Source of the DNA: a virus
Virus record (IMG/VR): IMGVR_UViG_3300037063_000214
Reading direction: 5' to 3' (one strand)
Length of the DNA stretch: 64,000 nt
The notes beneath the pieces were generated by a model. The model was not told where the DNA came from, ran no database searches, and saw nothing but the letters and a program-made list of their open reading frames with translations. This document shows, one piece after another, positions 1 to 59,629 of the stretch. Position numbers and translations under genes: made by a program. Numbering within the stretch: the stretch's first letter is position 1; every line of letters starts with the position of its first letter.

Positions 1-1068
1 TTACACAATAGAGTATCAGAACTATCCGATCAATTTCAAAAAAGCGTGGTTACAACTGCGGAACAAGGAGCACCTAAATCTCCAGAAAGGAGATCGTCTT
101 TAAAAGAACTGGTTAATATGTTCTGGAATCTTAAAGATCGAGGAGGATTAGCTATAACCCTATCAAAAAAAGGAATAATGTCTATGGAACAAGTCATGGA
201 TAAATCTATGACTCAAGAAAAATTGATAGACGCTTTAGATTCTGTAGACAAAAACGGACAAGGTTTGATACAGCAGGGGGATATCAATAATGATATAAAT
301 AACGATGGATTTAACGCTATGAAAAATAGCGAAGAGTTACTGTACCACATAAATGAAAGACAAAAAAAAGACAAAATTACAGACAAAGACAGGGAGAAAG
401 ATTTAGATGTAGCCAGAATGCTGCAAAGACGAGAAACTACTCCAGCGGATGCAATTGGAGCAATCTTTCAACCTTGGATTTTTGAACTTATTCATGGGGT
501 TGAAAAATTAGTAGACTTAGCTACCTTAGGAACTAATGATACAGAGGCACTAAAAAAACTTTACGAGGAAGATAAAGGGTCTATCCAAAAAGAGATAGAT
601 AATACTCAAAAATCCATGGATGATATATCTCAAGGGCTTAAAGATATAGCAGGCATACACACCACAGAAGCCGACAAAAAAAGAAAAGAGTTAGAAGAAA
701 AAGGTAAAAATCTATTAGCTTGGAGAAATAGATTAGACTTGATTAGTGGTAACCAATCTTACAGTACGCCGGTCGAAGCAGCCAGCGTAGAAGCAGGATT
801 GGGGTTACAGCCAATTGCAATGGATTTAACTAGCAGGTTACCTAAACAGTTGGACAATGGTTTAATATTAGAGACTAAGGGGGGTAGTAATCAACCACAA
901 TATAAAATAGATCAAAGTTCATTTATTGTAAATCAGTTTAGCGCTCCAATTAACCAGGATGCTGGGTATAATGACAGCGCAAGCGTGTCTAATGAACAAG
1001 CAGGTAAACAGATGCACCCGGCAATCGCTCCTTGGTTGAATGGGGGACTTCCAAATAGGAATCAATAA
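1..1068 (+). CDS. Hypothetical virion/internal protein, 5'-partial. The frame is open from position 1, so the ORF continues upstream of the window. Charged, coiled-coil-rich.
   Basis: Frame 1 has no stop from nt 1; the track shows 46..1068. Ends TAA at 1066-1068, immediately upstream of the SLT-domain gene, which suggests a tape-measure or internal-protein C-terminus. K/E/D-rich composition. Confidence 0.5.
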   Translation, partial: LHNRVSELSDQFQKSVVTTAEQGAPKSPERRSSLKELVNMFWNLKDRGGLAITLSKKGIMSMEQVMDKSMTQEKLIDALDSVDKNGQGLIQQGDINNDINNDGFNAMKNSEELLYHINERQKKDKITDKDREKDLDVARMLQRRETTPADAIGAIFQPWIFELIHGVEKLVDLATLGTNDTEALKKLYEEDKGSIQKEIDNTQKSMDDISQGLKDIAGIHTTEADKKRKELEEKGKNLLAWRNRLDLISGNQSYSTPVEAASVEAGLGLQPIAMDLTSRLPKQLDNGLILETKGGSNQPQYKIDQSSFIVNQFSAPINQDAGYNDSASVSNEQAGKQMHPAIAPWLNGGLPNRNQ

Positions 1069-1102
1069 TCAATAATCAATAATCAATAATCAATAATCAA
1101 TA
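1061..1102 (+). repeat. Heptanucleotide microsatellite (ATCAATA)x6 at a gene junction
   Basis: Six perfect tandem copies of atcaata at 1061-1102. It contains the TAA stop of the upstream ORF, places stops in all three frames, and its last copy supplies the AT of the ATG at 1102. Confidence 0.9.
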
Positions 1103-2556: not shown

Positions 2557-3722
2557 TGGCAAGCACAAATACAAACAACTCCAATATTGGATCAAATGTA
2601 AGTACCGATTTTAGTGATTTCAATATAACTGCGGGAAATTCGGCGCAAACATCCCCTGTTCAACTGCCTATTCGCGGAGAGAAACGCATCATTCCCTGTC
2701 CTATTAGCCCCAGCGATACCAGTAGTCAGATTGAAAAAGCATATACAGCACGGGGACAAAAATCCCCTCAAGATAAGGGTTACGCTGCCACCGGTCGAAC
2801 AAGTCTTGTGCAATATAGCGATTTTTTTACAGCGGGGGCGATGAAACCCTTCGTGGATTATGTACTCGTTCGTATACCACATCGCGGAGTTACATCCACA
2901 GGACAACAAAATGGTAATGCACCAGCAGCTATTTTTCGATTTCTCATTAACCCGTCTCAGGTTCAAGTCAATCGACAAACTTTAGATGGGCAAGCTATGA
3001 CTCGTGCTGGCTGGCAGATAGGTGTGTGGGGAGAAGATTCTTTCCAAGTAAATCTCAGCGGTAAAACCGCTGGCCAATATTTTGCCTTTGGAGTTACAGA
3101 TCAGTTTCAACCATTTTCAGATTCCTATCGGAATTTAGAGTCTTTGGTCATGGTGTTTGAAAATAACGGATACTGGTTTGAAGGAGAGCAAGCAGCTGAA
3201 GGCCCACTCGCAGCGGATTTCACCAGACGTAGAATCAAAATGCACCAAGATGTCGAATTGTGGGTAGGAAATTTTATTTGGTACGGTATGTTTGATTCCC
3301 TTACTATTAGTCAATCGGCGGAAGCACCTTGGCTGATGAATTTTCAAATCAGTTTTATCGCGTGGAAAGAGAGATTTCGCTCCACATCCCCGTATCAAAA
3401 TTTGATTCTCAATAATGTACAACGAGGGCATACTTATGGAGCATGGGCTTCGGCTGCTACCACTTCACAAAATGGTACAACTACAGTATCATCGTTGGCT
3501 AATTTACCTCCATCAAATATACCAGGAACCAATATTTCTAGTGTTGGGTTTAGTACATTGAATAGTCAACCAGCTTTAGTCTCCCCATCTGTTGCGGCTG
3601 CTAATGTTAACAATACCCTGCCACAAGTAGCTCCTACATCCGTAGATAATATGGCAAATACATCTTTTCTTTTAAACCCCACTAGTGTGGCAGCGTCTAA
3701 TTTTTATAACGGAGTTTCTTAA
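2556..3722 (+). CDS. Hypothetical structural protein (388 aa)
   Basis: TAATG overlap with the upstream gene; Ser/Thr/Asn-rich C-terminus; same operon. Confidence 0.6.
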   Translation: MASTNTNNSNIGSNVSTDFSDFNITAGNSAQTSPVQLPIRGEKRIIPCPISPSDTSSQIEKAYTARGQKSPQDKGYAATGRTSLVQYSDFFTAGAMKPFVDYVLVRIPHRGVTSTGQQNGNAPAAIFRFLINPSQVQVNRQTLDGQAMTRAGWQIGVWGEDSFQVNLSGKTAGQYFAFGVTDQFQPFSDSYRNLESLVMVFENNGYWFEGEQAAEGPLAADFTRRRIKMHQDVELWVGNFIWYGMFDSLTISQSAEAPWLMNFQISFIAWKERFRSTSPYQNLILNNVQRGHTYGAWASAATTSQNGTTTVSSLANLPPSNIPGTNISSVGFSTLNSQPALVSPSVAAANVNNTLPQVAPTSVDNMANTSFLLNPTSVAASNFYNGVS

Positions 3723-6700
3723 ATGGCTATTCCAGTTCCATTTGATCCGAATAACGCAGTTACCGTTACAGGTACAGGTGCAACAGTAGAAACGCAGAAT
3801 TCTACACTCCCGAATCAACTACCTATCTCCAATACATCACCCACAGGAGTTACGGGTACAGTTCCATCCCAAACTCCGGCTACTACTATTAGAAATTTGT
3901 CCCAAAGTTGTCAAGAAAGAGAAATAATCAAGACCGCTCCCGATGTTATTGTGTATTTAGAGGGAACCCCCTATTTGACAAATTACTTTATCGACGATCC
4001 AAAAACCAAAGCTAGTAGTACTTTAGTGAATTTTAATGACCATGTCACAGCATTCAACGCTTCTTATGATACAGATATAATGGTACCCAACGCCACTATC
4101 GGTTTGCAGGTTCCAAATTTTTTAAGGTACTTGTATAAAATGCCAGGGGGTAACAATCTTTTAGACACTATGATGCAGGTACAAGTATATGCTAAAGGAT
4201 ATTACTTAGCATCAAACGGAGATACAGTATATCGCCGGGTTTTCAAGGGAATCACATCTCACATAAGTTATAACGACAATGGAAAAACTCTGGAGATATC
4301 AATTCAATGTCAAGGGTCAATGCACTTACTTGAAAAGATGCAAATTAATGTTCACCCATCTGCAATGGCAGCGGTAACTTTAGGGAGTATGTTAACCTGG
4401 CAGCAAAGTATTTTTGGAGATAATAATTGTTTTACTATCTTAGCAAAAGCTTTCACAACAGGTTTTCAATCGGATGGATTTCAAGCTAGTTCAGTTAGGA
4501 GCACAGATGGAGGTTATTTAACTCCAAGTGATATGTTTTATTCCGCTGTTACTAGAGGTTACATGGCGAAATGGCAAGCCATTTTGATGAATATGATTAA
4601 AGATGTACATATTTATGGGCCAGACAAAGATACTTTAGGGCAATTAGATCAATTACAAGAAGATGAAAATAAAGGGAAGATGGACAAAGATAAGAAGTAT
4701 GCTAGTGTTACATCTCATCCCGTAAAAACTTTTACTGAAACGATTACTGATAACTCCCCTTATTATAAAAAAATACAACAATTTTTACCTTTTAGAACTC
4801 CCGCTAGTTTACAGCTTACTGAGAGTGTTATTGTTAATAGATTGGATATTATTCGTGAAGTAGTTAAGAAGATGGATTTTGAAGCATATCAAGATATTGA
4901 TGGTAAGATTATTATCAAACCACCTTTGTACAATCTGGATGTCACAAACTTAGGTACTCGGTCTAAACAAACTAGTTCCAGCCCTCAAAATTTTGACAGT
5001 TTAGTTCAATCATCTATATCTACTGCACTTAGTGGAGGCTCGACGCCAACAACAACTACCTCTAGTAATTCAGTGTCTGCTAGTAGCATTAATCCACCAT
5101 CTACTAGCAATAGTATGACGAATCCTCTGACTCAAATTTACCCGCAAAATAATCCTTTTGTGGTTTATTTATCAGAAATGTTAACAGAACAGGAAACAGA
5201 AGATCAAAGCGCCATTCGACGCACGCGCACCACTATAACAGGAAATATTATGCCGTGGCAGGGGAACAATTTTCCGGCACCCGCAAAGCCAGTAGCGGAG
5301 TATATTGATGTCACAAAACTAGCAAAGTTTGGTCTTAGGGAAGAACCCATGCAGCAAGTACCCTGGCTTACAATGGGAGACAAATATACTCTATTCGCTC
5401 ACGCTGCCGCAGAAACAGCTAGGACAAATAGAGGGTACCGTACTTACTCGTTTACTATTCCCATGCGCCCTGAATTGAAATTGGGATTCCCCGTATTTAT
5501 ACCCCACAAAGATATGTACGCATACATAAAATCTGTAGCTATAAATTATCAGGTTGGGGGGTCAGCTACAATGTCCATAGTATGTGATACAGTCCGACCT
5601 AGAGTTTTGGTTAAGACAGCTCAAACATCTACTACGGGCAATGTTAGTAATTCACCGGCCACAAAATTTTCCGCTTATACCACAGCCCCTAATTTAATTT
5701 ATATGTGGACAAATAATCCAGTCGCAGCTACGGTGTTTGATCCCGCGCAACCCCAAAGTTACAATCAATATATTCAACAAACCGCTGGGGGTAATCAAAA
5801 TACAAACACTAATATGACAAGTGAGCTAAATGTATCTCAATCTTTACCCGCTGTTACGAAAAACATTGACGGAACAAAATTTGGTCCAACAGATCAACAA
5901 ATAAAAGTGTATTCTTATCTATCCACTACCTTAGCAACAACCGTAGGTAATAAAGCCAGTACTCCTACATCTACTTATGTTATCGTAAATGATACGGGGT
6001 ATTTTAATGGAAGAGCAAAAGACCCAAATTATCCAGGCCGACCAGCGGATGGAGATTATGTAAAGGATATTTGTGGTAATCCAAATTCTGTTATTCCTTA
6101 CACAGATGATAAAGGATATGAATTAATATCCCCATTTCCATGGGGGAGATGGAAAGATCTCAACACAACCATCAGTGAAATAACCGAACAGGGGTGGATT
6201 AATATTCCTCAGACTAACGGGTTAAATGGGCAAGATTTACAAGATGAGACAACTTTTCAAAGTACGGAGGCTTTTTTGTTTGCTGGTTTAGGTACTCCAA
6301 CGGCTACAAGTGACCCATCGACTATGTTATCCACGGCCATGGCTACCCAACAAAGTACAAATACTACACCTACATCGGTTTCACCAGCTTCAGCATCAGC
6401 TCCAAATTCACCGAATACCGGGGGAAATTCGACAAATACCATACAACCAGATGTTACTGTAATAGTATTAGATTACAGTCAACCAGGTTCTAATAGTAAT
6501 TTGTTAAATGCAGCTCAACCAGAAAACGCCTTGGCCGCTAGTTTAGTTAGCGCTAAAAACGCTGGATTGGCCGAACAGCAGCTAGTTAGCGTATTAGTAT
6601 CTGGGACTGTAGCTCCAATCCCAGCGGTGCAAGAACAATTATTAATTGCTCAAAACAGTGCGGCTAATGCACAGCAGTCATTTGCTACACTGACCTTACC

Positions 6701-6827
6701 AGGGGGATCCGCAAATGCTGGGGGACTTACTACAACTAAGGTTACAGCTTCAACTAGTACTATAGCTCAAACTTTGGGTCCAGCGCAAACTACAACGAGT
6801 AATTTACCAGTAGATATAACACCATAA
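3723..6827 (+). CDS. Large structural protein (1034 aa), Thr/Ser/Asn-rich, with a C-terminal module shared with the SLT protein
   Basis: Long ORF coupled to its neighbours. C-terminus LTLPGGSANAGGLTTTKVTASTSTIAQTLGPAQTTTS is about 80% nt-identical to the end of 1102..2556. Confidence 0.65.
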   Translation: MAIPVPFDPNNAVTVTGTGATVETQNSTLPNQLPISNTSPTGVTGTVPSQTPATTIRNLSQSCQEREIIKTAPDVIVYLEGTPYLTNYFIDDPKTKASSTLVNFNDHVTAFNASYDTDIMVPNATIGLQVPNFLRYLYKMPGGNNLLDTMMQVQVYAKGYYLASNGDTVYRRVFKGITSHISYNDNGKTLEISIQCQGSMHLLEKMQINVHPSAMAAVTLGSMLTWQQSIFGDNNCFTILAKAFTTGFQSDGFQASSVRSTDGGYLTPSDMFYSAVTRGYMAKWQAILMNMIKDVHIYGPDKDTLGQLDQLQEDENKGKMDKDKKYASVTSHPVKTFTETITDNSPYYKKIQQFLPFRTPASLQLTESVIVNRLDIIREVVKKMDFEAYQDIDGKIIIKPPLYNLDVTNLGTRSKQTSSSPQNFDSLVQSSISTALSGGSTPTTTTSSNSVSASSINPPSTSNSMTNPLTQIYPQNNPFVVYLSEMLTEQETEDQSAIRRTRTTITGNIMPWQGNNFPAPAKPVAEYIDVTKLAKFGLREEPMQQVPWLTMGDKYTLFAHAAAETARTNRGYRTYSFTIPMRPELKLGFPVFIPHKDMYAYIKSVAINYQVGGSATMSIVCDTVRPRVLVKTAQTSTTGNVSNSPATKFSAYTTAPNLIYMWTNNPVAATVFDPAQPQSYNQYIQQTAGGNQNTNTNMTSELNVSQSLPAVTKNIDGTKFGPTDQQIKVYSYLSTTLATTVGNKASTPTSTYVIVNDTGYFNGRAKDPNYPGRPADGDYVKDICGNPNSVIPYTDDKGYELISPFPWGRWKDLNTTISEITEQGWINIPQTNGLNGQDLQDETTFQSTEAFLFAGLGTPTATSDPSTMLSTAMATQQSTNTTPTSVSPASASAPNSPNTGGNSTNTIQPDVTVIVLDYSQPGSNSNLLNAAQPENALAASLVSAKNAGLAEQQLVSVLVSGTVAPIPAVQEQLLIAQNSAANAQQSFATLTLPGGSANAGGLTTTKVTASTSTIAQTLGPAQTTTSNLPVDITP

Positions 6828-6828
6828 T

Positions 6829-9213
6829 ATGCCGCTACTAAGAAAAAATACGGATTTTTATCCACCTACATCATTTGAAAGAACAAATGAAAGCCTCCAC
6901 CGCGATATTTTCATTGTAGAAGTTCTTACTGTTGACTATGAGCGTAAAGTAATGACAGTAGAAGATGTCAAAGATGGCCTTATTTATGGTAATGTTCAAG
7001 TATTTCCATCCGCGTCCACTTCATCACAAGGATACGATATGGTAATGCCCGAACAAGGTTCTATGGGAATTGCTTGTAATTTTGCTTACGATAAAGGTTT
7101 TCGTCAGGTGATGATAATTAGCTGGATTCATATGGATAGGTATCTTGGGATAGATGCTGTTGGGGTTAGACAAATATCCGGCACCCGAATCCAAGGTTAT
7201 AGCGACCGTCTGAGAGGTGTATATCGAAAGGCGTTCCCAGGGCAAAAAACATCAGCTTATACAGGTGGGGCGTCAGAAAAGGTGGATACCGGCTGGGATA
7301 GACAAGCAGCCGATTATAGCAGAGATAAAACGGATGCGGATAAGCGTCAATGGACTCAGATAGCGGCCCGTAGGGTCTCCTATACCGATGCTGGGGTATC
7401 TTTTGAGGGGTCAGTGAATCGCCCTCTGGCATCAAATTTAATCCCTGTGATTCTCCCAGATGGGACAATGGAATATGTAGCCTACCTGCAACCCGGAGCC
7501 CAACCATCAGATCGATATGTTAGCGGGAAGCAGGATGTAATTCCTTTCGCTGAACACACAGAATTGACGCAGGAATTCTCTCTTGATTATCCCATGCCTT
7601 ATGAAGTATTACAGACCAGTTTGTTTAACACCGTATTAGGTTCTACCGCAGACCCATGGGCACGCACTAAGGTAACCTCTCCCAGCGGTCAAGTAGCTTA
7701 CGATAACGAAACTTACATGATTACCCAGACTTGGGATGATCCGTTTGATGATAGAGCAAAAGCCGTGGGTCCAACACTTAATGAAGGACCTACCCCGCAA
7801 CGTAGAGCTTTTATTGTAGAAAAATCTCAAGGCACCTTGGTTGGATATAATATTTTTGACCAGGCAACTTACGGTCATGTGTTGAAGCCTGTTCTATTCC
7901 CTTATAATTACTGCGGGCGTTTTGGAGCAGATGTGGAATCAGGATATTTGCCAGTTGTGGATTCCGCGGATCATGAAGAAGCTCGTTTAGCAGCATCTTG
8001 TCTAGCCATACGATTCCCTTATGACCAAAACACTACGCGATTGGATGTAACGAAAGAGGGTTTTATCAGCTTGGAAATCGGATCGACTTTACCTAAAGAA
8101 AATATTCTAAAGCATTGGCAAGGTGGATATGAACACCCCCACGGTGCTGGCCGTTCTTTAGAAGCGCACCTTGTAGGTAGTGCAAAAATTGTTATCGGTA
8201 AAAATAGAGATGAAGAAGATGCTTTGGACGCTCAAATTTTAGGGCAATCTGTAATTCGTCTAGGGGCGGATGATGCATCTCTTCCGAATTCTCGTCGCAC
8301 AGTACAGACTCAAATTCGAAGTAATGGAGATATTCCGGCGACTCGTACTTTACAGTTCTGGACCGAACACAAATTGAATCCAGGGGACGCCGGTAGCCTA
8401 ACTATGAAAACGGGTGCTGAGAATATATCTCTTCGCGCTGCTACGGATGGAGGCGCTGTACTACGCTTGGGGGCTAAGAATCCAGCATCTTTACGCCGTC
8501 ATTTGATTAATGGGTACTCCGATGGTCCTGGTAAAACCGCTTATCCAGAATCTCCTACAGGACCTTATGGCGGAGGTACTGATTGTGGGGAACCTTTCCA
8601 TGGTCGCATAGACTCCAAGAGCCCGGGTCGTCCCACCTACGGAGCCGGGGATAATATTTATCGGTTCCATGATCTTACTCAAGTAGGAACACCCCCGCCA
8701 AATTCGGGGACAACTGACTTTAATCCTTTTCCCCCATACGCATGGAGTGGTTCTCCAGTAATCAACATGGATGCTCATGGGCAATCTCTTGATTTGCATG
8801 CTGTGCGAGATGCTTTATTGCGTTTGGGTTCAAATCCAGATTCTGGGCAATCGTTGCTTTTAGACTTAGCCGGTGGAATAGTTGCAGCACTGGGAAAAGA
8901 CAATCAGGGGCGTTCTATTACCGCGGCCTTAGACGGCGGGATTGAGATTACTATACTTCCTAACGCACAAGGAAAAGCCATGCGATTAAATATTATTGGT
9001 GATGTTGACATCTCTCATAAAGGGCACCTTCAGTACAACTGTGGGGGAGATATAATTACAGAATGTACAACAGCGAGAAGTATTGTAAAAACAGATCGTA
9101 TTGAAACACAGATGAATGCGATTAGTGCTTCTCTTGTTAGCGATAAGAGAGAAGCTCCAAATTCTGTGGATAATAATGGACTTTATGTCAGCAATGAAAA
9201 TCAAATTTCTTGA
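6829..9213 (+). CDS. Hypothetical structural protein (794 aa), possibly a baseplate or tail-tip component
   Basis: Long ORF starting immediately after the upstream stop; no recognisable catalytic motif. Confidence 0.6.
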   Translation: MPLLRKNTDFYPPTSFERTNESLHRDIFIVEVLTVDYERKVMTVEDVKDGLIYGNVQVFPSASTSSQGYDMVMPEQGSMGIACNFAYDKGFRQVMIISWIHMDRYLGIDAVGVRQISGTRIQGYSDRLRGVYRKAFPGQKTSAYTGGASEKVDTGWDRQAADYSRDKTDADKRQWTQIAARRVSYTDAGVSFEGSVNRPLASNLIPVILPDGTMEYVAYLQPGAQPSDRYVSGKQDVIPFAEHTELTQEFSLDYPMPYEVLQTSLFNTVLGSTADPWARTKVTSPSGQVAYDNETYMITQTWDDPFDDRAKAVGPTLNEGPTPQRRAFIVEKSQGTLVGYNIFDQATYGHVLKPVLFPYNYCGRFGADVESGYLPVVDSADHEEARLAASCLAIRFPYDQNTTRLDVTKEGFISLEIGSTLPKENILKHWQGGYEHPHGAGRSLEAHLVGSAKIVIGKNRDEEDALDAQILGQSVIRLGADDASLPNSRRTVQTQIRSNGDIPATRTLQFWTEHKLNPGDAGSLTMKTGAENISLRAATDGGAVLRLGAKNPASLRRHLINGYSDGPGKTAYPESPTGPYGGGTDCGEPFHGRIDSKSPGRPTYGAGDNIYRFHDLTQVGTPPPNSGTTDFNPFPPYAWSGSPVINMDAHGQSLDLHAVRDALLRLGSNPDSGQSLLLDLAGGIVAALGKDNQGRSITAALDGGIEITILPNAQGKAMRLNIIGDVDISHKGHLQYNCGGDIITECTTARSIVKTDRIETQMNAISASLVSDKREAPNSVDNNGLYVSNENQIS

Positions 9214-9300
9214 AAAGATAAGGGGATATAGTGGAGACAGCCTACTCTTTCAAGACGAGCAGAATACGGCGTGCTTAAACGTAAGGCAGAGAGAATATAA

Positions 9301-12300
9301 ATGGGCAGCATACCAGGACTAACACAGGCAGAAAATAACGCGCTTTTGTGGCCGATCAAAGCCAAAGGACAAGTGAATCGTTTAAATCCTCTTGGGGATC
9401 CTACGATTGAGCAATACTACCACTCTGCCATGGAGCAAGGTCGTTTCCTAGAAAAAAGTATAGCTGACGCTAATAACTGGATTCTTCAGAAAAAACAACA
9501 AGCCTTAAAGTACATTCAAACCTACACCCATATGAATTCTTTAGCTGTAGACGGACAGCTCCAACACGGTCCTCGTGCGGTTAAATACATCGCGGACTCT
9601 ATCAGTATCCTAAAAACTGTAGCCCAATTTGAAAAAGAAATTACTGGACTTGCTCAAGCAATTCAGCAGAACCTTACTATGCTTCTGTCTATTGAACAAA
9701 GCATGCTGCAAATGGTTCAGACTAATTCAAATGCTTTAGCAAATTTGCTGAACAATGTTTGTAACTGGGGACTGCCAGCTCGTCCATCAATCCCCAATCT
9801 TTTACCTGAGGGTATGTGGAATTGGAACGGTTTTAATTTTGCTCCGTTAGCTAATTTTGCTAAAGCGTTTGCTACGCCTCCATCATTCAATTTCAATTTT
9901 TCTTTCAGTCAATGTTCGTTGTCTATTCCTGGATTATTTAATTCAGGGGCATTGGGGAATAATATTCCGATATCTGTTACGACTAATAGTGGATTAATGC
10001 TCGGTACGGCGCAGTATATTCCACCTTTAGGGGGTTCTTCATCCTCAGCACCAGGGGCATCCCCAGTTTATGGACCTACATTTAATCCTAATACATCAAT
10101 GAATGGAGCGGTACCCGACCCCCATACTATTGTTGATAATTATTTAATGCCCGCAGCTACTTACATGAACAACATTGTATCCATTACACCGGTGTTGAGA
10201 GGGGATACAGTAGAACCTACAGATGCTGATTACTCAAACCCCAATTATACAGTTAGGGCAGCAGGGTTGCGCAAAGACCTAATTCATTTCATCACATTAG
10301 GTAATATCGTAGCCAATAATTATGATCCGTTTATAACCAGCGCGTGGATTTTATACCTCAATGCTACGCACATCGGGCGGGGTGGCAATTGGTTACCAAA
10401 TTTTGAATCCGTGTACGAACAATACATTCAACCGTCCATCACTTATTTGCAGAACACTCCTGTGCCTTACAATAATGTCAGTGGAAATGGTGTAGAGTAC
10501 ATGAGTATTTGGGGAACTACAGTAGCATACCAAGTAAATGACGTGGTAACTTACAATGGAAATTTGTATATAGCTCTGCAAATCAATACAGGGTATGAAC
10601 CAGACACGAATCCCACATACTGGCAGACACCTATTCCTCTAAATACTGTGTATGAAAACGCCCCAAACAACATACCTCTGATCGCTACCCTTAACAGCTT
10701 AAGTTTAGGAGATAGAAATACGCTGCTGTGGAAACTTTCATATATCGAAGCTTCTTTATTAGGTTACACCAGAAATCAAACATGGGATGCTTATCAAAAC
10801 GCCAATTACCTTTCGAATGTAACTGGATCAGATTTGGATTACACACCTACGGCTATTTCAACTACAACTAGCACTTTGATTTTAGGAGAGGGTGTAGCAG
10901 ATTTTCCTACGCCTATTACATTCCCTAGTTCTATGACAGTGCAATTGAACGCTGTCATAGCAGCCGCAACTATAAATATTCAAAACGATGTTGGATATCT
11001 ATCAGTTCGTTTGGGGAACCGGTACACTTACAATCAGTTTGCACAAGCAACCTTAGTCGATAGATTTAGCCAGTTTTGGCGCGATTTTGCTACCAATCTT
11101 AAAATTCTTCTGGCTCAAGATCCTTATCTTGTTCAATTTGTAATCACATATTTTGGTACATTGAACGGAGCCTTAAACCCCCTAGCTGATGCTACGGCAT
11201 ATAACGCCCTACAAGTAGACACTTCGAGTAGAAATCGATCCTGGACGCCTGGAACCCCCTTGCTGAGTATCCCAATCGCACCTATAGTATCCTACACTGA
11301 CAATGGTTCTCCCCCATCTACAGGGGGTTGGATCAATCCTCCAATAGATTTTGACCCTAATACTTTTCTTGCACGCCCCGATGTACAGGGACAACCTATT
11401 CCAGTGCAGATGGCCATGCTACGTACAAACATAAGCTACGCCGCCCTACAAACTTTCAAAAACAACTTCCAAAATGAAATTGCGGGACAAATTGCAAATG
11501 CTCAAAGTATCTTGGCACAATCCCAACAAATAGGGTTTCATGTGACGGCTGTGAATGATACCACAACCGTACCCTCGGGGGCGAGTATTCCTGTTCTATT
11601 TGATGACAGTACAAATTCAGCTTTGGGGGATTACGATTACACGGGAAATGTAACTAATCCCACTACTTTTACAATTCAAGCCGCAGGTGATTATGCTGGT
11701 TATGGACAATTGGATTGGGTTGCGACAGTTGCCGGAACTTATAATGTTACGATAAATCAAAACGGTGTTGGAATATTTACTACATCTGTAACTACGACAT
11801 CAGCCAATGCAAGTTTAACATTGCCATTTTCGTTTGCGGGTAGTTTTGCTCAAGGAGATGTGGTGCAAGTTATCGCCAATCAAGATAATGGGGTACCCCA
11901 AAATGTTATACCCCAGAGTTTTTTTAGCCTGGTTCAAACAGGAGCTCAAACTACTAGCAGCGGTTCTCCTCCTGTAACTCCTAGTGATACTACCACCATG
12001 TTTACTATGGTTAATTCCTTACCCACTTGGGTAAGCAGTCCCGTACCCGCGGCTACGGTTGTACAAGTTATTCAACCAAATGGAAATGTAGTACCAGTGG
12101 ATCCATTTGTTCCTGGTGTTTCTTTAATTCAAATCACGAACCCTAATGTGGTTATGATTACTGTAGATACTACACATCATTTCTTTATGGGGCAATTGAT
12201 AGTATTTTCTGGGTTTGATGCAGCCAGCTTTGTTAATAATCAAGTCGCTCTTATTACCGGAATTACAACAAATACATTTACAGCTACCTTTATTTCATAT

Positions 12301-12657
12301 ACTCACGCGAGTTACGGTCCAGCATCAGACACAGGGAATGTGTATTTAGCGATTGATGATTCCGGATCAATTTTATCTCCGAATCCTGATGGAATTACAA
12401 TCGCTTCCGCAGCTGCGGGGAGTATGGTAAGTGTTAATACGATTTACGGAGAATCGGTGCAGATACCAGGTCTTACTTTAACTGTTGGACAACCTGTTTA
12501 TGCGGGGTTGAATGGTGTATTGACTCAAGACTATACAACTCTCATCACTCAAGTAGGGTGGGTAATGTATATAGGAATGGCCATACCTGGAACTTTAACA
12601 TTACCGCAGACTGATACTATACTTTACGAGCCGCACATTCCAACAATATATATATAG
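9301..12657 (+). CDS. Tail fibre/receptor-binding-like protein (1118 aa) with a CBM5/12-like motif and one GF-x-N...FTA module
   Basis: VAYQVNDVVTYNGNLYIALQINTGYEPDTNPTYWQ resembles chitin-binding CBM5/12 (aromatic...GD.V.Y.G..Y...W). Later SGFDAASFVNNQVALITGITTNTFTATF is the recurring module. GAGAG SD before the ATG. Confidence 0.65.
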   Translation: MGSIPGLTQAENNALLWPIKAKGQVNRLNPLGDPTIEQYYHSAMEQGRFLEKSIADANNWILQKKQQALKYIQTYTHMNSLAVDGQLQHGPRAVKYIADSISILKTVAQFEKEITGLAQAIQQNLTMLLSIEQSMLQMVQTNSNALANLLNNVCNWGLPARPSIPNLLPEGMWNWNGFNFAPLANFAKAFATPPSFNFNFSFSQCSLSIPGLFNSGALGNNIPISVTTNSGLMLGTAQYIPPLGGSSSSAPGASPVYGPTFNPNTSMNGAVPDPHTIVDNYLMPAATYMNNIVSITPVLRGDTVEPTDADYSNPNYTVRAAGLRKDLIHFITLGNIVANNYDPFITSAWILYLNATHIGRGGNWLPNFESVYEQYIQPSITYLQNTPVPYNNVSGNGVEYMSIWGTTVAYQVNDVVTYNGNLYIALQINTGYEPDTNPTYWQTPIPLNTVYENAPNNIPLIATLNSLSLGDRNTLLWKLSYIEASLLGYTRNQTWDAYQNANYLSNVTGSDLDYTPTAISTTTSTLILGEGVADFPTPITFPSSMTVQLNAVIAAATINIQNDVGYLSVRLGNRYTYNQFAQATLVDRFSQFWRDFATNLKILLAQDPYLVQFVITYFGTLNGALNPLADATAYNALQVDTSSRNRSWTPGTPLLSIPIAPIVSYTDNGSPPSTGGWINPPIDFDPNTFLARPDVQGQPIPVQMAMLRTNISYAALQTFKNNFQNEIAGQIANAQSILAQSQQIGFHVTAVNDTTTVPSGASIPVLFDDSTNSALGDYDYTGNVTNPTTFTIQAAGDYAGYGQLDWVATVAGTYNVTINQNGVGIFTTSVTTTSANASLTLPFSFAGSFAQGDVVQVIANQDNGVPQNVIPQSFFSLVQTGAQTTSSGSPPVTPSDTTTMFTMVNSLPTWVSSPVPAATVVQVIQPNGNVVPVDPFVPGVSLIQITNPNVVMITVDTTHHFFMGQLIVFSGFDAASFVNNQVALITGITTNTFTATFISYTHASYGPASDTGNVYLAIDDSGSILSPNPDGITIASAAAGSMVSVNTIYGESVQIPGLTLTVGQPVYAGLNGVLTQDYTTLITQVGWVMYIGMAIPGTLTLPQTDTILYEPHIPTIYI

Positions 12658-13797: not shown

Positions 13798-13873
13798 AAT
13801 TTTATCCTCGTTTAAAGAAATGAATAGTCAAGCTACATTAAGTTGTTGAAAATAAAGACATTCAAATAAAATA

Positions 13874-13903
13874 TTGACAATTTTCCCCATTTTAGGGTAT
13901 TAT
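13874..13903 (+). promoter_or_regulatory. Consensus sigma70-like promoter TTGACA-N18-TATTAT
   Basis: ttgaca at 13874-13879, tattat at 13898-13903, in a 250-nt non-coding gap. A leader of about 148 nt precedes the 14052 ATG. Confidence 0.6.
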
Positions 13904-14051
13904 ATTCGATGGGGAGCTTCAGGTCATTGATCGACCGAATGGCTCCTAAAAGTGTTTATGGAGGAAAACAAAATATAAGTCCTACCAATTCAATGCTTTA
14001 CGGTGGACGAAGTAGCTACAAAATCTTGTAATTCAGAATAACGGAGATTAT

Positions 14052-14908: not shown

Positions 14909-15337
14909 TCATTGCCAAGTTCCGGTTATGAGTTGGGTAGCTAAACGGCCGTATCTGGCTGGGAGTTCTTTAGCGGCGGCACTTTGTAGCAAGTTTGACG
15001 CTGCTTCGTCCCATTCCCCTCGCTGCATATATGATAAGGTGTTGTGAAAAGCGAGTAGTCCATGGACGCCTACATTAAATCCTACATTAATAAGAACACC
15101 TTGTCGTACTACATCTAATTTTGAGAACCAGGGTAAATTAGCGTTGAGATTAGCCACGACACTTGTCACATCATCATTCAAAATAGAGTTGCTTTGAGCT
15201 AAAGTAATACCGCACCCCCGGCGTTTATCAATACAATGACCTGTTCCTATTGTCCAATAACCATCATCATCTGGGTATGCGTATAAAACTGTTCCTTCAT
15301 CCCGATCGAGCTGTGAAATAATATCTGTAATTGCCAT
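14909..15337 (-). CDS. T4-type lysozyme (glycoside hydrolase family 24), endolysin
   Basis: DEGTVLYAYPDDDGYWTIGTGH ... LINVGFNVG ... WDEAASNL ... ITGTW matches the T4 lysozyme catalytic E/D/T core and the C-terminal WDEAA..TGTW signature. 142 aa. Confidence 0.85.
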   Translation of the reverse strand: MAITDIISQLDRDEGTVLYAYPDDDGYWTIGTGHCIDKRRGCGITLAQSNSILNDDVTSVVANLNANLPWFSKLDVVRQGVLINVGFNVGVHGLLAFHNTLSYMQRGEWDEAASNLLQSAAAKELPARYGRLATQLITGTWQ

Positions 15338-15351
15338 TGTTATCTTCCTAT

Positions 15352-16137
15352 TTATAAAGCTACATCCACATACACTTGATCTAAAGCAAAATTTATTGTT
15401 AAAATCATATGGGATTGTGCGGGAGTAGGATTGATAGCTGCTTCCCCTAACGAACTAGCTGGGGAATAACCCTCTATTACTCCCATCGGATTTGCTAAGG
15501 TTAACGTAGTAGACGATGATCCCAGACAGTTAAATGTCCCGTTATTACCAGCGTTTACAAAACCCTTGATTGTAAGGGAGTACCCTGTATAAGCGTTGTT
15601 AATCCCTCCGGGGATAGTTCCTATATATGTTGTACTATCGGGTGGAGAGCTTAGTTTTTCCACGGATACTAGAGAAAACAACCCTAGTTGGTTGCCTGCA
15701 TCAGGTGAAAAGATAATTGAAATAACACCGTCTGCATAGGTTAGTCCTTGAGGGGAAAATCCTTGGAGTGATCCGTTGTAGTTATCGCTTAAAGCAAATC
15801 CATCAGCTAGTAAAAATTGCATCCACATCGGTAATTCTGAGGCTTGAGTAACGGGAACACTTTGATCTAAAATTACCAAGGATGCTAAGGAAAGCAGTAC
15901 TAAACCATAGGTAGGAAAGGCTGCTGTGCTTCCTCTGTATGGATTAGGGCTGTTAGCAAATTCTGTGTACCAGGAAGCGTATACAGGACCTATATCCTGC
16001 ACACCATTGGTGTAGTGAGTTCCGTCAAAAGAAAATCCGGTGTGGTTATTTGCAACTGGAAAGTAAAACCCATCATTTGTTCTGGGTTGTAAATCCAAGG
16101 AGGCTACTGTATCGATATTTAGGTAGTTGTAAGCCAT
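15352..16137 (-). CDS. Hypothetical protein (261 aa) carrying one AYTGY...GF-x-N-x-x-NNGTF-x-C...TLTL module
   Basis: AYTGYSLTIKGFVNAGNNGTFNCLGSSSTTLTLANPMGV parallels two repeats in 20643..26258. 4-nt gap to the lysozyme gene, so co-transcribed with it. Confidence 0.55.
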   Translation of the reverse strand: MAYNYLNIDTVASLDLQPRTNDGFYFPVANNHTGFSFDGTHYTNGVQDIGPVYASWYTEFANSPNPYRGSTAAFPTYGLVLLSLASLVILDQSVPVTQASELPMWMQFLLADGFALSDNYNGSLQGFSPQGLTYADGVISIIFSPDAGNQLGLFSLVSVEKLSSPPDSTTYIGTIPGGINNAYTGYSLTIKGFVNAGNNGTFNCLGSSSTTLTLANPMGVIEGYSPASSLGEAAINPTPAQSHMILTINFALDQVYVDVAL

Positions 16138-16191
16138 ATCTAATAACTATTTTGTTAGTTGATTTGAAAAACCCAACTATCGTTTCCTAAA

Positions 16192-16599
16192 GTGATGCGG
16201 CAGAAAAAAGAACTTAAAGGATTGAAGTTTGGATTTTTATCAGTACTAGGTCTTGGGCTTCCCCAAGGAACGCGGAATAGACCTACTTGGATAGTTCGTT
16301 GTATTTGTGGTAAAGAGAAGTCTATTCGTGAAGATGTCCTTGTGTCTAACAGAGTTAAGAGTTGTGGGTGCGCCTCCGGCCGATTAAAAAAATCAAAAAT
16401 GGAAAAACGATATGGTCTTACGAATAAAAAATTTGGTCGGCTCTGGGTTGTATGGCGTATTGGATCTGTTCAAATAGGGAAATCTTATCATTCTCTTTGG
16501 ATGTGTAAATGCATTTGTGGGACATTTCTTACTGTGCAGGGCGGGAAACTTACCAGTAACAAAACTACAAGTTGTTCAGCTTGTGCGATGGAGGATTAA
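16192..16599 (+). CDS. Tandem zinc-ribbon protein (2x LTVL...WxCxCxCG...SCGC motif), putative DNA-binding/regulatory
   Basis: Two copies of the motif: KFGFLSVL..WIVRCICGKEKSI..SCGC and KFGRLWVV..WMCKCICGTFLTV..SCSAC. First gene of the long + operon. Confidence 0.6.
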   Translation: MMRQKKELKGLKFGFLSVLGLGLPQGTRNRPTWIVRCICGKEKSIREDVLVSNRVKSCGCASGRLKKSKMEKRYGLTNKKFGRLWVVWRIGSVQIGKSYHSLWMCKCICGTFLTVQGGKLTSNKTTSCSACAMED

Positions 16600-19500
16600 A
16601 TGTCAGACCAATATGATCAGAAACAATACCCACTAATAGTAAGTCGTACACTTAATCCCTCGATGAAAGCCCTCGCCACCGTGGTGGCGCGGCACGACGC
16701 GGAAATCACTGACGCGGATATCAATTTAATCCAAGATCTTCAAGATTTAAAAAGGTCTCAGATACTTCAAGATAAATCGTGTGTAAGCGGCTGTTTGACT
16801 TACGCACCTCTGCAATATAATACAGCCATTGCTAATACTTTTTTCATCCCCACCTTTGATGTGTTGTGGAACAATATTGAAATACTAACTATCGCTGGTA
16901 ATATGAGTCCCGATTTAACTCAAAACCGTGTGCAAATACCCACACCCCAAAATTGGACGCCAGGTGTTAACGCTCAAGATGCTCAGATATATGTTGTATT
17001 TCTTGAGATATGGTATCAAGCCCTTAATCCAGTTACCGGGCAGGGGTATTATCAAGATCCTATTACCGGTTTGAATTATTTTTATCCTTACGGAGGAGTC
17101 AATCCCGATCCATCCAATGCTGAAATTGTACCTGATGATTCTATTGATCCGTTTGAGGGGTTGTTTACAACTGAGAGAGCACAGATCCAATGGCGCATCA
17201 ATGTTCAACCTGTAGCTCTAACTTATAATTTTCAGACCTACCAATTTGGTCTAGACCCTGATACCACAGATGCCTCACCTTATGGTGTTCCTCTTAATGT
17301 ATACGCGCAAGCTGGGCAACCAGCCCCTATAGCAGCATCTCAGTACCAATTTTACAACATGGGGAATGTAAACGGGGATACAGGTTTATGGCGAGCTGGG
17401 TCTCCTCCATGGAATTCAATAACTACTTACAATCAAGGAGATGTTGTTACTTATTCCGGTTACACATATTCTAGCACTCAAGGTAGCAATCTCAATAATA
17501 TTCCGTCATCTAATTCATCGTGGGTAGTTACTAGTACAGGAAACGTAAATAATTCTTTGGGTACAATGGATGGTTACAGTTATGCAATGCCGCTGGCTGT
17601 TATCTTTCAACGTAACACCGGAATTTTTGATGTGAACTCCAATATATTTGGATGCGCGAGCGCTACTACCCCCAATTCCGGGGTATTGGCGAATCCCGTT
17701 TCTGGACGTTTTGATTCTCGATTAGCCGACCAGATATTTTCTGATAATGTAGTAGACACTCGTATCATAAACACTTTAGATGCTTGGGATGGAGAACTTC
17801 TTTTAGGGAATGGATTTGGAGATTTAGTACAAGGTAAAACACAGTTAGCGCTTTCTCGTGGATTATCATCGGGCAATAAAGCAGAAGATTTAGGTTCCAC
17901 TCTTCCTTACTATGTATCTATTGGCACAACCCCATCAGGAGGTACAATCCCTAATACATTCCCCGCTGGGTTATTTGATGGTTTTATGAACGGGTTTAGT
18001 AGTGATGCACGAACTTATGAATCCACCTATCAAATTACTACGAGTCAAAAATCTACAGGCATCTCAGGAAATAACTGGGTGTTGGGGGATTCCTTTACTA
18101 TTACTTTACCTTCTACATCTCAAGCTACAATTACCGATATTAGTGTAACGGCTCTTGTAACTCAAGGTACAACCAAAGTGCCCGCAGCTTTGTTACAGGG
18201 TCAGATTACTATTACAGGGCTAGGGTCTTCATCCGCCACAGTTACCTTTACTACAAATCTTACCGGTACACTCTTTGATCCGGGGTCTAATAATCTTTAC
18301 GCCACTATTAGCACAACTTATGCAGCTGGTACGAATGTAAATCTTCAGCAAATTCCATTTACTGTGGATGGTGGAAGTATTTTTGACGCACAAGCAGGTG
18401 CAACAATGCCTGTGTTTGGTATATCAGAATATGATGTACAAGTGCCACAAGTAGTCCTGGCACCGTCGAATCCTGTATATCAAACGGGGGGCGCTTCATT
18501 TGGTGTTTCAGCTAACTCTGTATATGCTATAAGTCCGAAATATTCTGATATTGTATTGGGTACAAAAATTTGGCTGGCAGTACCAGGTTCTCTGGGAACA
18601 TCCCAGACGATAGGTGGAAATTCTGTAACTACTTTCATGCTTCCAATGACCGGCATATCCGGACAACTAAATGGTTTGTACTGTACCTCAGCATGGGATT
18701 TAGCTTCTGACGCACCCTATACAATATCTTCCTGTGTTATGACATCTACGACCCCAGCGGGAATTATGCTTGTTGTTCAACTCCAAGCTTCTGTATCCCC
18801 AAGCTCTACTATTATTTTTTCAATCTTAGCTCAAAACACTGTTCAAACTACTTACAACGCTCCGGTGAAAGGTATTACATCAATTGAAGAAACTGTTATG
18901 TTTGGTAACTATCAATTGAACCAAAACGCAAGCCAAAACTTTCCTTGTGATACGCGAGTCGTGGTAGAAAATGTAAGTCAACCCGGAGGATCAGGCACAC
19001 CCACTACAATAGTTTTAGGGGCTAATGGATGCACTATAAAGGGAATATCCGGAAATGATGTGTCAAGTTTGATTTGGGTAGCAGATAATTCAGGAAATTT
19101 AAATTCCCTTCCAATCACCAGTATCAATTTTGTAAATGATGTAGTAGTTGTAGTTGTGCCAGGTACTGTAAATCTAGTAGGAAATTCTGCTCAACCATTT
19201 TTATTTTGCGGTAGTATTTTGCCCGCCTTATCTGCTACATCTACCTTTATTGTAGAAATTCGTTACATACCTTATCAAGGGGAGGGTGTGATTAATAGAG
19301 ATTATGAAATTTTAGCATCAGAAGATAACGCACTGGTGACATCTAACGGAACGGGTTCCGCCCCAATTATTGGATTAACAGATGTTTATCCCTATAACAG
19401 AGAACTGCCAATTATTACCACGCTCCCAGCGCAATCAAGTTGGGGAGATGCCGGTCTGACTAACACTCCACTAGCTTCTGTATTCGATTCAAATTATGTA

Positions 19501-20640
19501 GCTATGCGAGCAGACAATGTAGAAACTACATTTTTGGTTCCTTTACATACAAATGATTTTATACCCCCTATCAATAAAGATACTCGTAAAACTATACGTT
19601 TTATAACCCCAGGGCAGCGTGGCTTTGCTACAGCAACTCCCCACATCGGGTTCGCTATTACAGCCCCCACCCCTCGTACAGTATTAGGACAGAATCTACA
19701 GAACACTACTGCACCAATTACTTTATACGTGGACAACTCCGGAGCTGGGAACGACAATAACAGCGGATTGACGGCGCTTGAAGCTAAGGCTACATTTGCT
19801 GGGGCTATGGCCGAACTTCCTCCAGTATTGAGTTTCCCTTGTGTAATTATTTTCAATTCAACTGGGGTGCCTTATAGTATTTCAGCTCTTCAAAGTTCCC
19901 TGCAAACAGTAGCTTTAGGGGATGGTGATATTCGCTCACAGAAACAGTACTGTTTGGGAAATTTGTCTCGGACTATTCAAGGAGAAGGCAGGTTAGTAAT
20001 TTCTCAAGCCCCGCTTGCTTCGAGTCCAGTGATAATTACAGCATCAGGATTCGCAGGATTTGGAGATGGGCCTACGGCTGCTTTTTACATTGATACCAGT
20101 CGAGTAATTTTAAATGGTATACAGTTTGTAGGGTTCACCAATCCAGCTATTGTAGCGTATAACGCTGATATTGATATGGTTGGATGCTCATGGATTGGTA
20201 ATGCACAAGCAGGGTCGTACATTGGTTGTGACAGCGTTATTCTAGATGGTGGATATACATCCTTGGCAGATAACACCACAGGACATGTATGTGTGCAGTC
20301 AAATTTAACTTCTTCGAATCATAATCTCATAGTTAGCGGACCATCTGTCCCCCCAGAGCCTGGTATTTTTTATGTAGGAACTAGAGGGTCTACCGTAAAT
20401 CTGCAAGTACATGCAGCTGGTTCTTCATCGCAGACAGATGAAAATTGGACAGTACCCACACCTACATTTATTGTAGTAGAAGCTCAATTGAATTCCAGTG
20501 TAGCAGTATCATCTACTTTTCAAACTAATGGATCGGCTGTATTACAAGCCAATTCTGTATTACAACAAACAGCAGTTACTAATTCGTTTTTAGGTGGGGT
20601 GGTGGTAGATGCTAGTTCGTCAGTAGTGACCCAAGTATAA
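16600..20640 (+). CDS. Giant fibre/adhesin-like structural protein (1346 aa) with a CBM5/12-like motif
   Basis: TAAATG coupling. WNSITTYNQGDVVTYSGYTYSSTQ...SSW is a CBM5/12-like motif. Thr/Ser/Asn/Gly-rich. Confidence 0.65.
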   Translation: MSDQYDQKQYPLIVSRTLNPSMKALATVVARHDAEITDADINLIQDLQDLKRSQILQDKSCVSGCLTYAPLQYNTAIANTFFIPTFDVLWNNIEILTIAGNMSPDLTQNRVQIPTPQNWTPGVNAQDAQIYVVFLEIWYQALNPVTGQGYYQDPITGLNYFYPYGGVNPDPSNAEIVPDDSIDPFEGLFTTERAQIQWRINVQPVALTYNFQTYQFGLDPDTTDASPYGVPLNVYAQAGQPAPIAASQYQFYNMGNVNGDTGLWRAGSPPWNSITTYNQGDVVTYSGYTYSSTQGSNLNNIPSSNSSWVVTSTGNVNNSLGTMDGYSYAMPLAVIFQRNTGIFDVNSNIFGCASATTPNSGVLANPVSGRFDSRLADQIFSDNVVDTRIINTLDAWDGELLLGNGFGDLVQGKTQLALSRGLSSGNKAEDLGSTLPYYVSIGTTPSGGTIPNTFPAGLFDGFMNGFSSDARTYESTYQITTSQKSTGISGNNWVLGDSFTITLPSTSQATITDISVTALVTQGTTKVPAALLQGQITITGLGSSSATVTFTTNLTGTLFDPGSNNLYATISTTYAAGTNVNLQQIPFTVDGGSIFDAQAGATMPVFGISEYDVQVPQVVLAPSNPVYQTGGASFGVSANSVYAISPKYSDIVLGTKIWLAVPGSLGTSQTIGGNSVTTFMLPMTGISGQLNGLYCTSAWDLASDAPYTISSCVMTSTTPAGIMLVVQLQASVSPSSTIIFSILAQNTVQTTYNAPVKGITSIEETVMFGNYQLNQNASQNFPCDTRVVVENVSQPGGSGTPTTIVLGANGCTIKGISGNDVSSLIWVADNSGNLNSLPITSINFVNDVVVVVVPGTVNLVGNSAQPFLFCGSILPALSATSTFIVEIRYIPYQGEGVINRDYEILASEDNALVTSNGTGSAPIIGLTDVYPYNRELPIITTLPAQSSWGDAGLTNTPLASVFDSNYVAMRADNVETTFLVPLHTNDFIPPINKDTRKTIRFITPGQRGFATATPHIGFAITAPTPRTVLGQNLQNTTAPITLYVDNSGAGNDNNSGLTALEAKATFAGAMAELPPVLSFPCVIIFNSTGVPYSISALQSSLQTVALGDGDIRSQKQYCLGNLSRTIQGEGRLVISQAPLASSPVIITASGFAGFGDGPTAAFYIDTSRVILNGIQFVGFTNPAIVAYNADIDMVGCSWIGNAQAGSYIGCDSVILDGGYTSLADNTTGHVCVQSNLTSSNHNLIVSGPSVPPEPGIFYVGTRGSTVNLQVHAAGSSSQTDENWTVPTPTFIVVEAQLNSSVAVSSTFQTNGSAVLQANSVLQQTAVTNSFLGGVVVDASSSVVTQV

Positions 20641-59624: not shown

Positions 59625-59629
59625 AATTT

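Follow-up and report, generated by a model that had tools for sequence, protein, structure and literature searches.

Zn2 is a small basic protein encoded on the plus strand of a 64,000 nt stretch of DNA (the window) from a large, novel, myovirus-like phage with a GC content of ~41%, held as IMG/VR virus record IMGVR_UViG_3300037063_000214. With a probability of about 0.6, Zn2 is considered to be a domesticated protein that is related to the PacI-type HNH homing endonucleases of this phage clade and has no nuclease part; it would act as a non-cleaving DNA-binding protein co-expressed with tail genes. It is composed of two tandem Cys-rich modules of a type also found N-terminal to phage-borne nucleases, and it occupies an intergenic slot that in related jumbo phages is either empty or filled by free-standing or nuclease-bearing relatives. 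On this reading Zn2 is an accessory protein, the domesticated remnant of a selfish element, and not a core late-gene switch.

The Zn2 gene is a real gene. In the open reading frame (ORF) list and in the sequence it extends over 16195-16599 (+), from the ATG at 16195 to the stop codon TAA at 16597-16599, with an alternative GTG start at 16192; the sequence-only reading of this DNA had placed the ORF at 16192-16599, which holds, and gene calls in relatives use ATG 16195, including those on three metagenome contigs with 96% identity. The ATG start yields a protein of 134 amino acids (aa) with an isoelectric point (pI) of 10.1 and nine Cys residues, located at positions 36, 38, 57, and 59 and at positions 104, 106, 108, 127, and 130 in the numbering of the 134 aa form. 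Alignment of residues 1-60 to residues 70-132 spans 63 positions with 35% identity (E=5e-8), and a single-module hidden Markov model (HMM) matches both halves; the modules are ~55 aa each and are arranged in tandem with a period of ~55-65 aa, as is characteristic of the module family. The coding parts of Zn2 are:

16216..16380, plus strand: module 1 (aa ~8-62), LKGLKFGFLSV...TWIVRCICG...IREDVL...KSCGCA, delimited by the internal repeat and by conservation in orthologs.
16381..16416, plus strand: basic inter-module linker SGRLKKSKMEKR, with a K-x-x-K-M-E-K core that is nearly invariant in orthologs.
16417..16587, plus strand: module 2 (aa ~75-131), LTNKKFGRLWVVWR...LWMCKCICG...TSCSAC.

Module 1 reads F-G-F-L-S-V...W-I-V-R-C-I-C-G...S-C-G-C and has Val in place of the first Cys of the CxCxC triad, a replacement common to most orthologs; module 2 reads F-G-R-L-W-V...W-M-C-K-C-I-C-G...S-C-S-A-C, in which the terminal pair is CxxC rather than CxC. 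It had been proposed from the sequence that one motif pair occurs twice; the duplication is borne out by the internal alignment, the exact motif is not, as neither module matches it in full. Because module 1 is without the first triad Cys, this residue appears dispensable, and the zinc ligands are likely the last two Cys of the triad with the C-terminal pair, i.e., C36, C38, C57, and C59 in module 1 and C106, C108, C127, and C130 in module 2. Four conserved Cys, a CxC at the hairpin and a C-terminal pair, are found in both modules.

The ORF terminates 4 aa past the last Cys, and Pfam and NCBIfam return no nuclease domain within it at E<=10. An HMM of the PacI-like domain built from relatives has no match in any frame of the 64 kb window; neither a second copy of the module nor a free-standing PacI-like or other HNH domain was found in the window. 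Since Zn2 is without a His-Me/HNH catalytic domain, cleavage by the HNH mechanism is therefore not possible for this protein, and its earlier description as free-standing and nuclease-free is confirmed for the ORF, for the sequence downstream, and for the window as a whole.

The module belongs to a very large family and is extremely common in proteins from phages and metagenomes. A search of 1.84 billion cluster representatives with the module profile recovers 100,295 proteins at E<=1e-3 and 33,409 at E<=1e-10, and the family spans >100,000 clusters at 50% identity. Copy number and architecture were assessed on 255 top proteins, in which the arrays comprise 1-11 copies and are invariably N-terminal; 169 of these proteins have a C-terminal extension of at least 70 aa, and 86 consist of modules alone. 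In PHROGs, Zn2 matches phrog_374 ('HNH endonuclease') with E=6e-24 in two stretches, solely at profile positions 187-252 of 617, and tblastn against GenBank phages gives 39 records with 28-43% identity to Zn2. These results and the architectures from the profile search agree with the statement in the sequence-only reading that the module is usual in small phage proteins or N-terminal to HNH domains. Pfam HNH domains are present in module proteins P0005 and P0046, and P0007 carries a 'LDRINNDGDYEPANCRW' domain; the DUF559/Vsr-like tail of P0074 is not significant (Pfam E=0.36). GenBank labels of module proteins conflict, ranging over HNH endonuclease, AP2 domain protein, regulatory protein, transcriptional regulator, and hypothetical, and the viral structure matches to module proteins bear the names AP2, HNH, restriction enzyme, or homing endonuclease. 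Neither Pfam nor NCBIfam contains a model that corresponds to the module at E<=10, whether in the Zn2 ORF or in canonical multi-module relatives; the sub-threshold matches to Acetone_carb_G and CapR are attributed to chance. No solved structure in the PDB was found to match the module by sequence or profile; a literature search for the module motifs returned nothing relevant, a comparative paper on jumbo phages is silent on the module, and the genomic contexts of two distant homologs, phiCDHM11 gp28 and Bacillus phage WH1 gp055, are variable and provide no functional clue. It is unusual for a module family of this size to have no curated model or structure; with its contradictory public annotations, the family is a candidate for curation.

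An AlphaFold2 model built on 51 two-module units (mean predicted local distance difference test score, pLDDT, of 83.5; predicted template modeling score, pTM, of 0.49) features a three-stranded sheet and a short helix in every module. Module 2 is modeled with a pLDDT of ~90; a linker helix is predicted at residues 66-73 with low confidence (pLDDT ~53-77 for the linker block). The solved folds nearest to the model are small barrels of the SH3, Tudor, or KOW type, of which many bind peptides. A classical zinc ribbon has two CxxC-type knuckles on two β-hairpins that form a three-stranded ribbon; as a fold label, the name zinc ribbon given to the protein from its sequence is doubtful given the model and its nearest solved folds. 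Zn2 is pictured as two tandem zinc-stabilized β-modules, each of which would bind one Zn, probably through the C-x-C of the hairpin and the C-x(1-2)-C at the start of the helix.

The central finding on Zn2 concerns its genomic slot, which was compared across 33 related loci (designated by L numbers) recovered from IMG/VR with the N-terminus of the 1346 aa protein encoded next to Zn2. The contigs are up to 463 kb long, and slot contents were mapped by HMM and tblastn. In the window the slot and its borders are:

15352..16137, minus strand: 261 aa gene of unknown function, the left border of the slot, conserved in related loci.
16138..16194, no strand assigned: divergent intergenic region of 57 bp between the 261 aa gene and Zn2.
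16597..16602, plus strand: TAA/ATG stop/start junction, where the Zn2 stop codon abuts the start of the 1346 aa gene at 16600.
16600..20640, plus strand: 1346 aa tail-module gene, the right border of the slot and the first gene of a 23 kb co-directional block, with homologs in 33 IMG/VR loci.

The 261 aa gene (-), which has homologs with 32-57% identity in 31 of the 33 related loci, and the 1346 aa gene (+) are divergent neighbors in all loci but one, which is cut at a contig end. The slot between them is found in four states. It is empty in ~15 of the 33 loci, the flanking start codons lying ~57-100 bp apart; it holds a free-standing Zn2 of 128-146 aa with 43-65% identity to the window protein in L009, L014-17, L019, L022, L025/26, L035/39, and L037, and a free-standing Zn2 also in L001-4; it holds Zn2 fused to a C-terminal domain of ~120 aa in L010 only; and it holds a single module joined to the same C-terminal domain in L021, L029/30, and L077. 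Free-standing endonuclease genes are known to occupy intergenic sites between conserved phage genes (PMC2988022), and the slot displays the corresponding presence/absence polymorphism between conserved neighbors; because the four states include nuclease-bearing forms, it is considered a homing-endonuclease hotspot. A metagenome scan adds 14 further free-standing Zn2 orthologs, none of which (0/14) has a nuclease, and no conserved neighboring nuclease gene is present at the ~25 Zn2 ortholog loci. The junction between Zn2 and the 1346 aa gene reads TAATG or TAAATG in relatives, and the genomes of relatives contain several module+HNH genes each.

In L077 a one-module+HNH gene is situated between Zn2 and the 1346 aa gene, and the last Zn2 codons are replaced. 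At 1078-2054 of this contig Zn2 is followed by the one-module + PacI-like HNH gene (overlapping ATGA) and then by the 1346 aa homolog; its Zn2 is identical to protein P0002 except for the last ~10 residues at the C-terminus, and the insertion at the junction therefore rewrote the 3' end of Zn2. Two further observations concern related loci. L088 (contig Ga0182031_1397144, 1785 bp) matches residues 68-134 of the window protein with 100% identity and probably derives from the same phage population. Several empty slots contain a conserved palindrome of ~30 bp (GACTTTcctCTACTaAGTAGatgcAAAGTC), located between the divergent flanking genes at about 5925-5990 in L020, L023, L028, L032, and L034; this element is likely an operator or a bidirectional promoter element that is replaced when the slot is filled.

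The C-terminal domain carried by the nuclease-bearing relatives identifies the type of endonuclease involved. A profile of this domain from L010, L021, L029, and L077 matches PacI (PDB 3ldy) with E=1.2e-5, and the motif CxxCG...G(I/V)DRxD..(G/D)Y...N..C..C(N/Q)..K is common to the phage domains and PacI, with the third Cys missing in one of five phage domains (L010). The Pfam HNH match is weak (E=0.09), and hhalign of the domain with the HNH-bearing P0046 gives no signal; the link to the His-Me fingers is drawn from the PacI match together with the weak Pfam match. PacI-type His-Me fingers are without the catalytic His and use a Tyr of the omega loop instead (PMC5714182); the Tyr at the 'GY' position is invariant in all five phage domains and is presumed to be the catalytic Tyr. 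Nuclease-bearing slot genes behave as free-standing homing endonucleases that have been mobile recently. In L029, three genes with Zn modules and a PacI-like HNH domain (2585-3154, 4047-4784, and 5370-5999) are absent from L028, the flanks being 96% identical, and identity falls to 83-93% beside the insertions; this pattern points to recent homing events with co-conversion tracts. In a tree of the flanking gene, L011 (empty slot) and L021 (filled slot) are sisters. Every nuclease-gene insertion ends at the start codon of the 1346 aa gene, which suggests that the 5' end of this gene is the homing target.

Comparison of orthologs indicates that Zn2 is under purifying selection and is not a decaying pseudogene. 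For the window gene and that of L001, which is 96% identical, nonsynonymous divergence (dN) is 0.0195 and synonymous divergence (dS) is 0.147, a dN/dS of 0.13; compared with L004 (58% identical), dN is 0.35 and dS is saturated, similar to the flanking genes. Twelve orthologs with 42-63% identity share 28 invariant columns, which include all the proposed ligand Cys; those in module 1 comprise C36, C38, G39, S56, C57, G58, and C59. The C-terminal ligand pair is CxC, CxxC, or CxH in all Zn2 orthologs except that of L009, which retains one Cys of the pair and has an extra Cys in an insertion. The pI is 9.7-10.2 across all orthologs, and the Zn2 clade has motifs that canonical modules do not: a GEPQG loop, IREDxL, the KSKMEKR linker, and FGxLWVVWR. 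The low dN/dS, the retention of ligands in ~25 orthologs, and the clade-specific conserved motifs are the reasons for which Zn2 is not regarded as a pseudogene; the fusion in L010 and the one-module+HNH genes at the same locus tie it in evolution to HNH homing endonucleases. The possibility raised beforehand that the protein is the N-terminal fragment of a disrupted HNH endonuclease is accordingly half right, the relation to HNH nucleases being evident at this slot and the gene being intact.

Upstream of Zn2 lies an element that provides the most concrete functional lead for the protein:

16156..16179, no strand assigned: inverted repeat TAGTTG-N12-CAACTA, with the invariant core TAGT-N16-ACTA.

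In an alignment of 10 filled-slot loci, including L010, neither the core nor its spacing varies, although synonymous sites are saturated among them. The inverted repeat is found at the expected place in L001-4, 9, 10, 15, 16, 19, 22, and 37 and is absent from empty-slot loci; it belongs to the cassette and may serve as its promoter, as a Zn2 operator, or as both. The Zn2 ATG is positioned ~15 nt past the repeat, after an AAG(G/T)-like Shine-Dalgarno remnant, and RNAalifold predicts no conserved pairs for the repeat, i.e., no conserved RNA hairpin. TAGT-N16-ACTA has four matches in the window compared to 1.07 expected, of which the other three are inside coding regions and none of these marks an operon start. 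A sigma70 promoter upstream of Zn2 is represented only by a weak 9/12 match that ends one base before ATG 16195, overlaps the inverted repeat, and is of a kind found at background frequency. A candidate window-wide promoter motif, CCAACTAYCGTT, was rejected as it is not enriched (13 matches compared to 8.5 expected).

Taken together, a mechanism can be proposed in which the modules provide the N-terminal targeting part for the phage-borne nucleases of a large family, and in which genes composed of one or two modules and a PacI-type HNH domain insert immediately before the start codon of the 1346 aa gene. Zn2 would be the nuclease-less form at this hotspot, selected in ~25 diverged phages and marked by motifs of its own. 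It is hypothesized to bind DNA site-specifically without cutting, and to be co-transcribed and translationally coupled with the tail genes; non-catalytic DNA binding is the most reasonable inference from a pI of 10, a linker that is both basic and conserved, and an architecture typical of targeting domains. Zn2 would act locally, most likely at the TAGT-N16-ACTA repeat as an autoregulator in the style of I-TevI, and may also act at the adjacent 5' end of the 1346 aa gene, the apparent target of the related endonucleases.

Several points weigh against this proposal. DNA and zinc binding by Zn2 are predictions from its sequence, and the inverted repeat may instead be a promoter of the phage and not an operator for Zn2. 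In L077 an endonuclease gene inserted despite the presence of Zn2, which argues against a strong protective role. The nuclease is carried by only one of ~27 Zn2 orthologs, that of L010, which could be either a retained nuclease-bearing ancestor or a secondary fusion, e.g., from an arrangement of Zn2 and homing-endonuclease gene like that in L077. In the flank-gene tree, built on the N-terminus of the 1346 aa protein, Zn2 presence is largely clade-consistent, with losses, and L010 is placed beside L004 and L009, within their group; in the Zn2 tree L010 is near the base (both are simple neighbor-joining trees), and at the DNA level the Zn2 region of L010 is far more diverged from that of L009 than are the flanks. 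A chimeric origin of module 2 of L010, from Zn2 and a homing-endonuclease gene, was rejected as BLAST shows the module to be Zn2-type throughout, and any fusion point therefore lies after it.

Among the alternatives, the best placed, though still doubtful, extends the same domesticated DNA-binding protein to a more specific role: Zn2 at its own hotspot would regulate the divergent tail-gene promoter via TAGT-N16-ACTA or modulate the access of incoming endonucleases, the nuclease having been lost or never needed, and the module arrays may read DNA in a modular manner.

Less probable, and on balance unlikely, is the role proposed in the sequence-only reading, a transcription factor controlling the 23 kb late structural operon that Zn2 would head. 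Zn2 opens a long co-directional structural block and is oriented divergently to an islet that contains a lysozyme gene, the protein is basic, a conserved inverted repeat is located in the divergent intergenic region, and there are precedents of homing-endonuclease DNA-binding domains acting as repressors (PMC2988022). The features upstream that bear on this role are:

46-12657, plus strand: upstream tail block encoding SLT lysozyme-like, tail-tube-initiator-like (weak, E=0.0025), and CBM_5_12 fiber-like proteins.
14909-15337, minus strand: lysozyme (T4-type, PF00959), in a short mixed-orientation islet.

The divergence from the lysozyme islet and the position directly before a long co-directional block were described correctly, with TAA 16597-16599 abutting ATG 16600; the block (16600-39543, +) encodes the 1346 aa protein, an 1871 aa He_PIG Ig protein, a Baseplate_J protein, and a baseplate-wedge component (BW3TFN). 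That Zn2 precedes this block is evident, the claim that it stands at the head of the late operon is not demonstrable; because a second plus-strand tail block with large genes lies upstream, Zn2 is placed inside a tail/baseplate module rather than at a demonstrable operon head. About half of the clade keeps the flanking and downstream genes without Zn2, and there the flanks are as close as in the empty slots described above. Since Zn2 ends directly at, or within, the start codon of the first structural gene, it would be made together with, and not before, its supposed targets. No other operon start in the window is marked by TAGT-N16-ACTA, and no similarity to known late activators is found (Pfam, E<=10). 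On these grounds the designation as a late-gene regulator is not supported.

Two further explanations are improbable. Zn2 could be the targeting subunit of a split endonuclease whose nuclease is encoded outside the 64 kb window; the phage genome extends well beyond the window (contigs of relatives reach 170-463 kb), relatives hold several module+HNH genes, and about one third of the top family members are modules only. Standing against a split enzyme, the window has no free-standing PacI-like or HNH domain and the ~25 loci share no nuclease neighbor. It is comparably improbable that Zn2 is a zinc-stabilized adaptor or assembly factor for the 1346 aa tail protein that does not bind DNA. The gene is always directly upstream of and coupled to the 1346 aa gene, and the barrels nearest to its predicted fold include many that bind peptides; however, in thousands of phage proteins arrays of these modules are joined to the N-terminus of nucleases or AP2 proteins, as is typical of a targeting domain, half of the clade assembles the same tail protein without Zn2, and the extreme basicity of Zn2 is conserved. 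The weakest explanation, that Zn2 is what is left of an HNH homing endonuclease gene, without function and in decay, with a frame that simply happens to be open still, draws on L010, where a PacI-type HNH domain is fused to these modules at the corresponding locus, on the nature of the slot as a hotspot, and on tails past the last Cys pair that vary among orthologs, and is very improbable in view of a dN/dS of 0.13 with dN far under saturated dS, ~25 orthologs of constant length (128-146 aa) and 42-65% identity that keep the ligand Cys (L009 partly), strong conservation of motifs absent from canonical modules, and no trace of a nuclease downstream because the next gene starts at once.

The proposed domesticated DNA-binding protein can be set beside several known systems. 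Zn2 resembles the free-standing HNH homing endonucleases (T4 mob genes, I-HmuI-like enzymes, PHROG_374) in its intergenic location between conserved genes and its presence/absence variation (PMC2988022); with PHROG_374 it also has in common the N-terminal module type, and nuclease-bearing paralogs occupy the same slot in sister phages. Unlike these enzymes, Zn2 has no catalytic domain and is conserved across a subclade rather than decaying. PacI (PDB 3ldy/3m7k) is matched by the C-terminal domains of relatives and differs from the window protein, which is without that domain; the N-terminal region of PacI is itself helix-turn-helix-like and does not consist of Zn modules (PMC5714182). I-TevI represses its own promoter via its DNA-binding domain at an overlapping operator, without cleavage (PMC2988022). 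The likeness lies in the combination of a homing-endonuclease targeting domain with an upstream operator, for which Zn2 has a conserved inverted repeat upstream; repression by Zn2 is proposed by this analogy. I-TevI differs in being a GIY-YIG enzyme that has kept its nuclease and binds DNA by a helix-turn-helix, a minor-groove helix, and one zinc finger. AP2 is reportedly a homing-endonuclease DNA-binding domain that was recruited as a transcription factor, as put forward by Magnani et al. in 2004; like the Zn2 modules it is a DNA-binding module that travels with phage HNH nucleases and also occurs nuclease-free, and proteins named AP2 carry the same Zn modules, however the Zn2 modules have no sequence or fold relationship to AP2. 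The late activators P2 Ogr and P4 Delta (PF04606) are likewise small Cys-rich phage proteins encoded near late genes; Zn2 differs in having no Pfam or NCBIfam match (Pfam at E<=10), another Cys pattern, and co-transcription with structural genes, as well as in being dispensable in half of the clade, and is not assigned to the Ogr/Delta type.

The remaining observations concern the wider window. Megablast of the 12 kb around Zn2 against GenBank phages gives no match. Within the tail module, a sigma70-type promoter near consensus (TTGACA-18-TATTAT, 11/12) is present at 13874-13903 (+) in a 254 bp gap at 13798-14051, upstream of a 173 aa ORF at 14052, and a 10/12 match is located on the opposite strand at 13927-13899; the gap looks like a divergent promoter region dependent on host RNA polymerase. 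Past 39543, genes for a helicase, RecA, an AAA_23 ATPase and a Metallophos phosphoesterase, and a 5'-3' exonuclease are found; the pairing of an ATPase with a Metallophos phosphoesterase is typical of SbcCD-type nucleases. A DnaJ-like protein with a J-domain and a CxxCxGxG zinc domain, both under Pfam gathering scores, is encoded at 43975-44634 (+). The 723 aa protein at 57370-59541 (+) has pro-kumamolisin activation and subtilase/sedolisin-type peptidase domains and a sub-threshold GEVED-domain match; this is an unusual enzyme for a phage genome. A tRNA-Ala gene (anticodon TGC) at 59549-59624 (+) overlaps the listed GTG start of the ORF at 59579-60595, whose true start is probably further downstream. 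Three tandem paralogous Cys-rich ORFs of ~65-87 aa with end-to-start overlaps are located at 60516-61173 (+), just 5' of the 5'-3' exonuclease gene, and have in common the motif C-x-Y-x-R-CENS-x-VAHIDY ... KFYCAKHYD ... ILRRNG(I/V)R.

For annotation, the label 'HNH endonuclease' is inappropriate for module ORFs without a catalytic domain. As a 134 aa protein with two modules, Zn2 is also a convenient object for determining the fold of the family, its zinc stoichiometry, and its DNA-recognition code. HNH homing endonucleases are well known in free-standing form, and so is their degeneration; a targeting domain without a nuclease that is conserved under selection, with all the intermediate states at one hotspot, is more out of the ordinary. 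A single phage clade preserves the empty slot, one module with HNH, two modules with HNH, and two modules alone, and these states show by what route the DNA-targeting portion of a selfish nuclease can survive on its own as a protein under selection; the same route, in which a targeting domain becomes independent, has been proposed for AP2-type transcription factors.

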